Shown here: positions 22,337 to 53,402 of the stretch, piece after piece | Layout of the letters: the number at the start of each line of letters is the position of its first letter | Position numbering within the stretch: position 1 is the stretch's first letter | Virus record (IMG/VR): IMGVR_UViG_3300037484_000435 | Coordinates: 384,001-448,000 of that record | DNA length: 64,000 nt | Direction: 5' to 3' (one strand) | Source of the DNA: a virus | Taxonomy: Duplodnaviria; Caudoviricetes | Notes under the pieces: generated by a model | What the model was told of the DNA's origin: nothing | Databases searched by the model: none | Seen by the model: only the letters and a program-made list of their open reading frames with translations | Position numbers and translations under genes: made by a program

Positions 22337-22693
22337 ATGAAAATAACTAAATTTTCAACCATAATGGTATTAATATTATTGGTTGGTTTATTGTTATTGG
22401 GTGGGTGTACAGACTCCCCGAAAGCACCAGTAATGATGTCAGTAGAGGGGTTTGTTCGGGCAGTTGAAATTTCACGGATAACAAATTGGACAGGAGTACA
22501 TCCCCTAACAGCTATTTGGTTTGAGGATGGTCGAGTTAAATATTTTGTAAAAAGTTACCCAGACATGGTGAAACAGGGTTATAATAATAAGATTAATTAT
22601 AAAAGGGTCTATCTAGCTAATGGGGAATTTTATGATATGATAAAAGGCCCAGTAGAATTTCCAGAACCGAAAGAACCCAAACCTGAGAATTAA
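22337..22693 (+). CDS. lipoprotein
   Basis: Signal peptide with lipobox LGGC. Confidence 0.7.
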   Translation: MKITKFSTIMVLILLVGLLLLGGCTDSPKAPVMMSVEGFVRAVEISRITNWTGVHPLTAIWFEDGRVKYFVKSYPDMVKQGYNNKINYKRVYLANGEFYDMIKGPVEFPEPKEPKPEN

Positions 22694-22768
22694 CTAACCT
22701 GGCATAAAAAGTAAGAGGATAGCGTTCGTGTTTACATGCCCTATAGAGGGCGGGAGAAGACCAAATAT

Positions 22769-22846
22769 ATGATTGAGTTTTTCTTAGCGTTGAGTGTGTT
22801 TCTCTTAAGTTTCTCCCTTTTCATTAAGATAGTAGTTCACAGATAG
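22769..22846 (+). CDS. 25-aa hydrophobic peptide, type I toxin-like
   Basis: MIEFFLALSVFLLSFSLFIKIVVHR; SD GGGAG; flanked by a 12-bp inverted repeat. Confidence 0.5.
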   Translation: MIEFFLALSVFLLSFSLFIKIVVHR

Positions 22847-22942
22847 TTAAATAATCAACCGGGCTTCGGCCCCCTTCCAATTTTTCAGTTAGATGTTTGA
22901 AAACGCTATCCTCCCTAACCCAAAATAAATTTAGGATTTAAT

Positions 22943-23110
22943 ATGATTGGCAAAATACTGTCTTGCTTTATAGCAATATTTATCATACCGTTTTTTCTGG
23001 TGGCCTGTATATTTGCTGTTACAAGCCGCCCCCTCTCGTATGAACACCCTATTGCACGGATAGTCTTGATGGGCAGTTCTTACATCAACAAGCACTGGAG
23101 ATTAATCTAA
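22943..23110 (+). CDS. small membrane protein (55 aa)
   Basis: Not in track; N-terminal transmembrane segment; TAATG coupling. Confidence 0.6.
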   Translation: MIGKILSCFIAIFIIPFFLVACIFAVTSRPLSYEHPIARIVLMGSSYINKHWRLI

Positions 23111-24142: not shown

Positions 24143-24161
24143 GAAAATAAAATTAACTAGC

Positions 24162-24201
24162 CTCCTGTGATAAATAAATGCTAATTACATATCTACAGGA
24201 G
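24162..24201 (+). promoter_or_regulatory. hairpin sequestering the SD of the downstream homing endonuclease gene
   Basis: CTCCTGT-GAT...ATC-T-ACAGGAG, with GATAAATA spanning the end of the 5' arm and the loop. Confidence 0.55.
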
Positions 24202-24210
24202 TAAGGAAAG

Positions 24211-25194
24211 ATGGAACAATCAAAAAACGTAAAGTGGTCTCTGGATGAAATCAACTTACTAAAGCAGCTATATCCTAATCCAAAAAATAAACAACAAATC
24301 TTAGAATTATTGCCACACAGAACGTGGGGAAGTATAAGGACTGAGTCCTACAAGTTGGGCGTAACTATGGAGAAACCCACTAAATGTTTATTAGACTTCT
24401 CAAACATAGATTCTGAAGAAAAAGCTTATATACTAGGATTTATAGCGGCGGACGGATTTATTTCCAATACAAATAAACAGTTTAATTGCTGGGTTTTAGG
24501 AATACAAATAGCAGAAAAAGATTTAATTTTATTAAGGCAAATAAGAGATTTATTGAACCCCAATCTTAAATTGAGTTGTACACATTACGCAGATAAACCT
24601 AATTGGTCAGATTGTTACAGATTAACAATGTATGATAATAAATTATGTAATGACCTCAAGGCACACGGAATTACGGAAAATAAAAGTAAAACATTGACAC
24701 CCTCAAATGGAATACCAGAGGAACTTATCCACCATTATATTCGTGGATATTTTGATGGAGACGGCAGTTTCTGGATTCGGAAGGGAGACGGTCGTCTCTA
24801 TGCTGGGTTTGCTGGAAGTGAATCTATGATGAATTATATATCAACTTGGTTCAAACAACAATATAAACATGAGTGTACCTTACGGAAGAAAGAAGGATGT
24901 TATTTGTTAACTTATTGTGGATTTACTGCGATCAATTTAGCTAAACTTCTATACTCCGATGCTACTATATATTTAGAAAGAAAATATTTAAGAGCAGCGA
25001 AGTTCTTCGATAAGGAACGACAAGAGCATATAATAGACAAATTAAATGGAGACAATATATGTAAATTATATAAAGAGCTGGGAACATGGACAAAAGTTGC
25101 TGAATATTTAGGAGTTAATGTAAGTTATATATCACGAATAAAAGATGGAAAACGAGGTAAAATAGGAAAACTTAATTGTGACAAGTTTAATTAA
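24211..25194 (+). CDS. free-standing LAGLIDADG homing endonuclease with Myb-like N-terminus and C-terminal HTH
   Basis: WSLDE...LP.RTW.SI; ILGFIAADG; IRGYFDGDG; AEYLGVNVSYISRI. Confidence 0.9.
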   Translation: MEQSKNVKWSLDEINLLKQLYPNPKNKQQILELLPHRTWGSIRTESYKLGVTMEKPTKCLLDFSNIDSEEKAYILGFIAADGFISNTNKQFNCWVLGIQIAEKDLILLRQIRDLLNPNLKLSCTHYADKPNWSDCYRLTMYDNKLCNDLKAHGITENKSKTLTPSNGIPEELIHHYIRGYFDGDGSFWIRKGDGRLYAGFAGSESMMNYISTWFKQQYKHECTLRKKEGCYLLTYCGFTAINLAKLLYSDATIYLERKYLRAAKFFDKERQEHIIDKLNGDNICKLYKELGTWTKVAEYLGVNVSYISRIKDGKRGKIGKLNCDKFN

Positions 25195-25717
25195 AAACAA
25201 TATAGGAAGACCCTGTCTTGTAACAGTCGGAGGTCCTCAAGCTTCGGGCAAAACAACTTGGTCTGAAAATTTTTTAACACAAAATCCTAATTTTGTGTAT
25301 ATATGTTCAGACCTATATTGGCCTGTGGACCAACAGGGCCAACGCTACTGGACAGACGACAGCGGAACGAGGAAATGTTGGTATTCGGACCCATTGCCGT
25401 CAGAACTGAAAGAGAGGGCGTATTCGTGGGCACATAAAAAAATGCTGGCTTACATGGATGTTGGGGATGATATTTTATTTGAAGGGACCTTAGTGGATAA
25501 GCACACTAGGAGGAACTTGTTATATGACGCGTGGATGAGTGGTTACGAGGTTCACGGTATATTTTTATTACCCTCATTGTTGGTTTGTGCCCAAAGGAAT
25601 TCTAAGCGAGCCCACCCTGTGCCTGATGTGGTTTTGGCCCGCACCTACGCTAAGGTAGAAGTGCCAGAGGAAGAGGAAGGCTTTGCTACTTTAGAAATAA
25701 GGAAAATGGAAAAGTAA
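25178..25717 (+). CDS. P-loop kinase (AAA_33, polynucleotide kinase-like)
   Basis: GGPQASGKTT, CSD, FEGT, C..RN..R...VP..V. Confidence 0.85.
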   Translation: MTSLIKNNIGRPCLVTVGGPQASGKTTWSENFLTQNPNFVYICSDLYWPVDQQGQRYWTDDSGTRKCWYSDPLPSELKERAYSWAHKKMLAYMDVGDDILFEGTLVDKHTRRNLLYDAWMSGYEVHGIFLLPSLLVCAQRNSKRAHPVPDVVLARTYAKVEVPEEEEGFATLEIRKMEK

Positions 25718-52116: not shown

Positions 52117-52179
52117 AACACACCCCTTTATCAAAACAAGGTTACGGTAGCCTTTCACTACAACTTGGAGAATACTATG

Positions 52180-52215
52180 TTCTCTATTATTACATAAATA
52201 TATATACGCACGTGC
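52180..52215 (-). promoter_or_regulatory. class B promoter-like motif
   Basis: GTGCG...TATATT-N8-AATAGAGAA. Confidence 0.6.
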
Positions 52216-52224
52216 GTATAGAAG

Positions 52225-52273
52225 TACCCTTCAAGGGTTAGGGGGAAAGAAAAGAATGGTACAAGAAAAGAAA
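52225..52273. repeat. imperfect direct repeat, copy 1 (copy 2 at 56046-56090)
   Basis: TACCCTTCAAGGGTTAGGGGGAAAGAAAAGAATGGTACAAGAAAAGAAA. Confidence 0.75.
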
Positions 52274-53402
52274 TATGGCTTTATACACGCGTGGGCGGGG
52301 CTATGTTTAAAAAAGTTAGTCACTTTTTCCATAGAAGAAGTTCTCAGTGTTGTATGTAGGGTAATCTGTACAAAGCTAACGCTATTAATCTGCCTGTAAC
52401 AAGACAAACTAATAGTGTATGGGCACAAGGACGTGCCCGATAGGTACAATTGGAAGTGCGAAAGGGGTTGGATAACCAGTGTCTTAATGCTTTATTATAG
52501 TGAACGTAAAGACACACAACATATTCACTTTTATTTCTCTTGCCGCATCTTATTTTATTCTCTCTTCGACGGCTCCAACAATTTAGGAACGGAATACTAG
52601 GAAAATAAAACTAGAAGAGATACCTTTTATTATTACAGGGAGGCGTTACACGTTCACTCACACACATAATTAAATAGAAAAGCATCTATTATTTTTATCA
52701 GGGTAGTTAAATACGAGCGGTAACGAGCAACAAGATAAGAGAAAAGGCCAAAAAGAGAAAATAAAGACGAAAAAACTTAAAAAGGCTTAAATAGAGGGTT
52801 ACGAAAATTGAAAAACCGAACAAAGTGAATACAAAATCAATAAAAGAGGGAGATGGAGGAAATAAAACACAAATAATTGAAAATAAAGTGGAATTAGGGC
52901 AGCAAAATGGGAGCAAAGAGGTCCGAGAGGGGGAGGGCGCGCATCTTATATAAAAAACAGGTGGGGGATAGGATGGGAAAAGAAAACCCTTAATTTATTA
53001 TTATGTATGTACCTATATGTTTATTGTTTTTCTGTTTATCTCCCTATCGATATGCGTATGTATAATCACTACCTTTTCCATTAGTAAGTGGTAAGTAAAA
53101 TAAAAAAGCTTTTGTTTAGCTAATTATCTGTTTCGTTCCTTGTACGTGTGGGTATCAATTATGCAGTATAATCTTTAGTTTCTTTTTCCTGTTATATCCA
53201 ACAGTTGGGTATCTTGTTTTAATTGCTTATCGGGTACCTATCGGAAAAGCCTCTCTAATCAATTCTAGTCCCTTCTTATGTTCAAGTAGGTGTAGAATTG
53301 TCTTAAAGGTTTGCATCGTTCTATACCGCTTATATTAATTCTGAGGGCATATATCTATGCATATCACGGAGAACAGAAAAACCCTAAATAGAGTTAATCT
53401 GT

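Follow-up and report, generated by a model that had tools for sequence, protein, structure and literature searches.

The locus is a 249-nt gap between a lipoprotein gene (P0001) and a 55-codon hydrophobic open reading frame (ORF), both on the plus strand (Table 1). It lies in the window, a stretch of 64,000 nucleotides that comprises bases 384001-448000 of the single 545,322-bp record of an uncultured, lytic-looking phage; coordinates below are those of the window unless they are called genome positions. The record is read with the standard code, with no indication of an alternative one, and the plus strand carries nearly all genes from ~3 kb to 50 kb of the window. Outside the window, one minus-strand ORF of ~14,700 codons occupies genome positions 288395-332530. 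The putative lipoprotein, so named from its lipobox, is one of a conserved family in which the blocks FEDGRVK and PDMVKQG are invariant; its eight homologues are 50-76% identical and come from contigs of up to 647 kb. A homology search with the 55-codon ORF found no homologues; the next called gene starts at 23110. Further neighbours encode a hybrid histidine kinase, ClpP and a phosphoribosyltransferase-like protein, and a LAGLIDADG endonuclease gene follows 1.1 kb downstream.

Table 1. Features in and around the gap (window coordinates)
Feature	Position	Strand	Remarks
Lipoprotein gene P0001	22337-22693	+	118 aa; lipobox LLGGC; TAA stop inside the plus-strand TTAACTA motif
AATTAACTAAC, plus-strand motif copy	22688-22698	+	core TTAACTA 22690-22696; overlaps lipoprotein stop codon
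Local hairpin GGCAT/ATGCC plus GTAA/TTAC	22701-22740	+	-8.3 kcal/mol; z -0.4
5' arm of 12-bp inverted repeat	22715-22726	+	contains SD GAGGA (22715-22719)
14-codon leader ORF	22728-22772	+	GTG to TGA; GAGGA 8 nt upstream; putatively translated
GGGAGAA, SD-like run	22752-22758	+	12 nt before ATG 22769
25-codon hydrophobic micro-ORF	22769-22846	+	ATG 22769 to TAG 22846; predicted
Paralogous segment (hairpin, TTAACTA, leader, SD)	22798-22886	-	from alignment; no ORF follows
GGGAGAA, SD of orphan leader	22811-22817	-	the "anti-SD" TTCTCCC on the plus strand
TTAACTA, candidate antisense promoter	22844-22850	-	overlaps micro-ORF TAG stop
GGGC-UUCG-GCCC hairpin	22861-22872		reads as a weak terminator on either strand
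3' arm of 12-bp inverted repeat	22902-22913	+	contains anti-SD ATCCTC
55-codon hydrophobic ORF	22943-23110	+	AGGA 6 nt upstream, optimal spacing; uncalled in protein collection

Is this arrangement found anywhere else? Searches with blastn and tblastn against phage records gave no match, and the exact inverted-repeat pattern, sought in viral contigs, occurred in none. The neighbouring proteins, searched singly in viral contigs, led to no confirmed homologous locus; neither did a lipoprotein alignment run against viral, metagenome and genome collections, although protein homologues exist. Two distant relatives, reached via a capsid paralogue, both lack the lipoprotein.

The initial annotation had singled out a 25-aa ORF in the gap as a hydrophobic helix with a basic tail, and such an ORF is present: its predicted product is one hydrophobic stretch ending in HR, with a best 17-residue Kyte-Doolittle mean of 2.39. 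A longer, 36-codon version begins at ATG 22736, with no SD at working distance. Codon-usage scores for the micro-ORF point neither way, and the Atlas scores of the peptide do not exceed 0.78. The peptide matches nothing in Pfam, NCBIfam or PHROGs (E-value limits 10, 10 and 1, respectively) and has no homologue among 1.84 billion representatives and phage records; in the same three collections and the representatives, it resembles neither Hok/Gef, Ldr, TisB, Ibs, ShoB, Fst and AapA nor other named toxin families. Membership in a hok- or aapA-type family, which the annotation had invoked, is thus unsupported. Other short peptides are encoded elsewhere in this genome: a family of the form LLIILL..GGGGFWYRRR, with members of 24 aa, 25 aa and a 48-aa double unit, each with an SD, is found at both ends of the record (genome 543930-544040 and 1052-1198, outside the window). 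Within the window, a 1.2-kb gap without a long ORF (52159-53402) holds an orphan minus-strand TTAACTA (genome 436710) and, ~300 nt from it, a 25-codon hydrophobic ORF.

If the micro-ORF is translated, how would a ribosome find it? SDs in this genome stand mainly 5-11 nt from the start codon, with a mode of 6-8 nt; the GGAG of the micro-ORF, 12 nt from its ATG, falls in the tail. A possible answer lies just upstream. The gap opens on an 11-mer, AATTAACTAAC, that is identical to the copy before the HNH gene at genome 75879; counted from the start of its TTAACTA core, the 5' arm of the inverted repeat lies 25 nt downstream and GTG 22728, with which the short leader ORF begins, 38 nt downstream. 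GAGGA, which makes up the first five bases of the arm, comes 18 bases after the motif, and its 8-nt distance from the GTG is inside the main range. The TGA of the leader ORF (22770-22772) overlaps the ATG of the micro-ORF as ATGA, and translational coupling across this overlap would explain the poor spacing of the micro-ORF's own SD. The GGCAT arm of the local hairpin begins 5 nt after the plus-strand motif, so only read-through transcripts could form this hairpin.

The perfect 12-bp inverted repeat that the annotation described around the micro-ORF is real (GAGGATAGCGTT 22715-22726 and AACGCTATCCTC 22902-22913, arms 175 nt apart), with one correction: its 3' arm had been placed one base too early, at 22901-22912. 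The other complementarities it listed, GGGAGAA with TTCTCCC, the GGCAT/ATGCC plus GTAA/TTAC hairpin and the GGGC-TTCG-GCCC hairpin after the stop, are likewise in the sequence. The 5' arm contains the well-placed leader SD, so the repeat would sequester that SD; for the ATCCTC of the 3' arm, the SD that precedes the next ORF is a further possible partner. Pair probabilities of 0.87-1.0 are predicted for 11 of the 12 pairs in the long-range stem, and ~0.7 for the 7-bp SD/anti-SD pairing.

How unusual are these pairings? Considered singly, the elements of the locus are weak evidence. The genome has 20 perfect inverted repeats of at least 12 bp with a spacer of 20-300 nt, versus 6-13 in Markov simulations. 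Six of the 20 lie wholly inside the non-coding 10% of the genome, where less than one is expected by chance (estimated from gap sizes, with no simulation): four are short hairpins, one is a divergent promoter pair, and the 22715/22902 repeat is the only long-range one without an explanation. A perfect anti-SD of at least 7 nt within 150 nt is rare (2/272 genes). The 5' arm has the longest downstream complement among the 3,957 SD-plus-start sites in the genome; the tail of that distribution is thin, with complements of 10, 11 and 12 nt seen once or twice each, and about one of 12 nt is expected genome-wide. Predicted accessibility of the micro-ORF SD is 0.19, the 17.5th percentile of 120 sampled GGAG-start genes. 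For SD sequestration speak the 12-nt and 7-nt complements, which are predicted to pair; against it are the unexceptional accessibility and the single 12-nt case that chance would supply. The local hairpins, which had been taken as the metastable structures of a toxin mRNA, are ordinary: with z-scores of -0.4 and -0.9 they are no better than shuffled sequence. Hairpins with a cUUCGg loop number three in the genome, too few for a recurrent terminator family, which was rejected as an explanation; the one at this locus is the only GC-rich example.

The motif that opens the gap recurs before a particular class of genes. Fifteen copies of TTAACTA lie in gaps: eight stand in sense 42-60 nt upstream of a gene start, a zone in which ~0.5 copies are estimated by chance, and a ninth stands at 25 nt. 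All nine genes downstream encode selfish nucleases (three HNH, five LAGLIDADG and one TnpB), a class that accounts for ~46 of the 744 genes of this phage (~10 HNH, ~33 LAGLIDADG and 3 TnpB). When one mismatch is allowed, the motif is observed 39-60 nt before the start of 20 selfish nuclease genes, and in most of these an anti-SD immediately after TTAACTA pairs with the gene's own SD; an example within the window is the leader (24153-24210) of the LAGLIDADG gene 24211-25194. Outside the window, an exact copy at genome 352594 precedes a head-module gene, as would suit a promoter of the late class; the structured leader there, of ~150-190 nt, has GGTTGATTAT and ATCTTAAT-AAAAG in common with the minus-strand leader of the window. 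TTAACTA is best described as a promoter-like motif that presumably has promoter activity, to judge from its placement. Another promoter family of this phage, TTTGTGTACTA, is real and is absent from this locus. At the genome-wide rate, ~0.05 copies of TTAACTA are expected in a 249-nt gap, and the probability of two, as observed here facing each other, is ~0.001. An antisense motif at the 3' end of an ORF occurs a second time outside the window, at genome 25406-25412, where a minus-strand TTAACTA directly follows the tandem TAG stops of a plus-strand HNH gene (24716-25405).

Where does the minus-strand copy come from? It sits in a segment (22798-22886) that aligns with genome 192,395-192,460, upstream of a LAGLIDADG gene on the minus strand (genome 191398-192390). 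The alignment comprises three collinear blocks with 12/13, 15/15 and 9/9 identical bases, and in a genome scan with this segment it is the best local alignment (score 58, against a mean of 20.3, an sd of 4.2 and a 99.9th percentile of 39.6); the next two best matches are other TTAACTA leaders. The 15-nt motif core is identical in the two copies and the flanks have diverged with indels; relative to the 192-kb paralogue, the GC hairpin of the window copy is a 13-nt insertion. Close copies of this leader sub-type are only three: the present locus and those at genome 192 kb and 352 kb. At 192 kb, the minus strand reads hairpin, TTAACTA, leader, AGGAGG and the TTG start of the LAGLIDADG gene; the window copy keeps this order, from hairpin and TTAACTA (22850-22844) through the leader to GGGAGAA (22817-22811), so the TTCTCCC that had been read as an anti-SD is an SD of the minus strand. 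No ATG, GTG or TTG lies within working distance of that SD.

This paralogy recasts much of what had made the locus look like a toxin gene. Within the segment lie the hairpin, the "anti-SD" and the 3' third of the micro-ORF with its stop codon: this third is the reverse complement of a borrowed leader, and the TAG lies inside the reverse complement of TTAACTA. Since the "anti-SD", the stop codon and the hairpin all fall inside an opposite-strand homologue of an endonuclease leader, they are accounted for without any toxin. The same homologue supplies a candidate for the antitoxin promoter that the initial annotation could not identify, namely the minus-strand TTAACTA. Nothing resembling a terminator follows this motif, which speaks against a discrete small antisense RNA.

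What, then, does the gap encode? The facing motifs, the intact minus-strand core, the leader ORF and the long-range stem fit together as a coherent sense/antisense unit, and our best reading, to which we give a probability of about 40%, is that the stretch behind the lipoprotein gene holds a small, convergent sense/antisense unit for a micro-peptide, built from two copies of the phage's promoter-like TTAACTA. The plus-strand transcript would start from the motif at 22690 and carry, in order, the GAGGA SD, the 14-codon leader ORF, the 25-codon ORF and the cUUCGg hairpin; the hydrophobic ORF would be translated by coupling to the leader ORF via the ATGA overlap. On the minus strand, the motif, its leader and an SD without an ORF would give rise to a non-coding RNA able to pair with the micro-ORF and with both SDs of the plus strand. 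Where a plus-strand transcript extends past 22913, the 12-bp repeat would lock the leader SD, and trimming of the transcript back to the hairpin would free it. Such a unit could act like a type I toxin-antitoxin pair or, more neutrally, as an antisense-controlled membrane micro-peptide; it is from this layout that we infer the transcripts, the translation of either ORF and any toxicity.

The type I toxin-like unit that had been proposed for this locus thus survives in part: the layout is compatible with it, a candidate antisense promoter is present and the leader ORF has a good SD; against it, the "anti-SD", the stop codon and the hairpin lie in an endonuclease-leader paralogue, the peptide matches no toxin family or other protein, and the hairpins fold unremarkably. 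A peptide under antisense control, of a type I toxin-like kind, is a plausible proposal short of proof, with leftover regulatory DNA close behind it in likelihood.

The latter is the main rival, a serious contender even if on balance unlikely: the gap would be a scar of homing-endonuclease traffic in which nothing is translated, the minus-strand leader being the remnant of a lost or partly copied cassette, the hydrophobic ORF a chance product of the T-rich strand opposite a purine-rich leader, and the 12-bp repeat either fortuitous or left behind by break repair. It would account at once for a segment that is paralogous to the 192-kb leader yet has an SD with no ORF behind it, for a further exact 14-nt match that is collinear with the first and falls inside the coding region of the 192-kb endonuclease, and for a peptide without homologues; wrong-frame open windows of 25 hydrophobic codons are common (283 in the genome), and the long-range complement is of the length that chance would produce about once. 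Against it, a coding remnant in the gap is unsupported: tblastn scores are at background level, and a LAGLIDADG profile built from 31 paralogues ranks the gap 74 of 601 segments. Debris would also be hard put to explain why the motif core has stayed intact and identical to its paralogue despite diverged flanks, and why a second motif on the other strand is followed by an SD at good spacing, a start codon and an overlap as ATGA. Quite unlikely is a more prosaic reading, in which the 25-/36-aa and 55-aa ORFs are ordinary small membrane-protein genes missed by gene callers, the repeat serves to stabilise or process the mRNA, and the minus-strand motif has no bearing on them. Very short membrane ORFs preceded by SDs do occur in many gaps of this genome, the 55-aa ORF has an optimally spaced AGGA, and the neighbouring genes are all on the plus strand; the micro-ORF, however, has a poorly spaced SD, neither ORF has a homologue, and the facing motif and paralogous minus-strand leader are left unexplained.

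Two further readings put the 12-bp repeat at the centre. A structured non-coding RNA of ~200 nt on either strand, closed by the repeat, would be in keeping with a stem predicted at a probability near 1 and with the folding of the whole 241-nt stretch (plus strand, z -2.1; minus strand, z -2.5, with a closing stem that G-U pairs extend to 15 bp). This reading is improbable: once the 3' arm is removed, the fold is no better than shuffles (z 0.15), an Rfam covariance-model search of the locus gave a best E-value of 2.8, far below the gathering score, and the genome holds no other copy. A retron RNA was considered, given that retron ends also pair, and dropped, as no adjacent protein matches a reverse transcriptase. 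Alternatively, the repeats might act at the level of DNA, as the ends of an invertible promoter segment or of a miniature transposable element; perfect inverted repeats do flank 175 bp in a gap that holds promoter-like motifs. That the phage encodes neither a serine nor a tyrosine recombinase (PF00239 and PF00589 find nothing in its 545 kb, and controls matched) and that the arms have no other copies weaken this reading to the point where we regard it as very improbable. An inverton was rejected on the first count and a repeated or mobile element on the second (41 matches to the arm at ≤2 mismatches in the genome, with 41 expected); there is also no target-site duplication at the repeat.

Returning to the sense/antisense unit, which known systems does it resemble? 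In hok/sok, the toxin gene has an overlapping leader ORF, mok, and its mRNA is subject to fold-back inhibition. Among the features of type I systems used by T1TAdb (PMC8594479) is a small (<~60 aa) hydrophobic toxin-type ORF, which the predicted micro-ORF would provide. With hok/sok and its mok leader, known from plasmid R1 and enterobacterial chromosomes, the locus shares the small hydrophobic peptide ORF (PMC8594479), a short overlapping leader ORF with a better SD and possible coupling, a 5' element that pairs with a distant 3' element, and possibly (as a candidate here) an antisense RNA over the ribosome-binding region. It differs in that Pfam shows no resemblance of the peptide to Hok, the 3' pairing element is found past a hairpin and not at a mapped 3' end, the antisense promoter is deduced from a motif, and the host replicon is neither plasmid nor chromosome but a 545-kb phage that looks lytic. 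The aapA1/isoA1 pair of Helicobacter pylori likewise has a peptide of 25-30 aa, an SD sequestered by a 5'-3' long-distance interaction (predicted here) and alternative local hairpins in the nascent RNA (PMC5416894, PMC6733600). In contrast, the two are not homologous, shuffled sequence folds as stably as the local hairpins here, and no sign of processing is seen at this locus. By mechanism, then, hok/sok with mok and aapA1/isoA1 would be the closest systems; by sequence, the peptide appears to belong to neither family, nor to any tested.

The regulatory parts probably have a different pedigree. In the leaders of T4 I-TevI, I-TevII, I-TevIII and segB and of Aeh1 mobE, a late promoter lies inside a hairpin that sequesters the ribosome-binding site, and as a result only late transcripts are translated (PMC2988022). 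The present phage follows the same design in most of the 20 endonuclease genes that carry TTAACTA, where an anti-SD for the gene's SD comes immediately after the motif, and the minus-strand half of the locus is paralogous to one such leader; on the plus strand, the GGCAT/ATGCC hairpin begins just after the motif, again as in T4 (PMC2988022). The differences are that no endonuclease gene follows either motif here and that TTAACTA is unlike the TATAAATA of T4, its role as a promoter being predicted. A T4-type cassette has its motif and leader directly before an endonuclease ORF; the copy in the gap does not and is an orphan, so the regulatory parts appear to belong with T4-type endonuclease leaders that have here been orphaned. 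A looser likeness is to the promoter/stem-loop cassettes (PeSLs) of T4-like phages, in which a hairpin is directly followed by a promoter-like motif, the whole is repeated between genes and may serve as a substrate for shuffling; here, however, the motif is another one, it accompanies endonuclease and head-module genes rather than early genes, and only three close copies of the sub-type exist.

Plasmids, chromosomes and prophages are known to carry type I toxin-antitoxin pairs, which, to our knowledge, are poorly documented in large virulent phages. If the proposed unit is real, it would be a working example of how phages use antisense-gated membrane peptides during infection and of how regulatory cassettes that homing endonucleases have spread can be put together into such a module. 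The boldest version, a giant lytic phage with a self-contained killer-peptide switch run from its own late-type promoters, and thereby a new type I-like family, is unlikely; were it true, the ribosome-binding site of a leader-coupled 25-aa peptide would be locked by a stem of 175-nt range, its mRNA would be opposed by a non-coding RNA from an orphaned homing-endonuclease leader, and the switch might time late damage to the host membrane or be an addiction device for a region under heavy endonuclease traffic. If the unit is not real, the locus is an instructive scar. Apart from the toxin question, the ~46 selfish nuclease genes gain a testable promoter-like motif, TTAACTA followed by an anti-SD, a design that would repeat the control logic of T4 in an unrelated giant phage.
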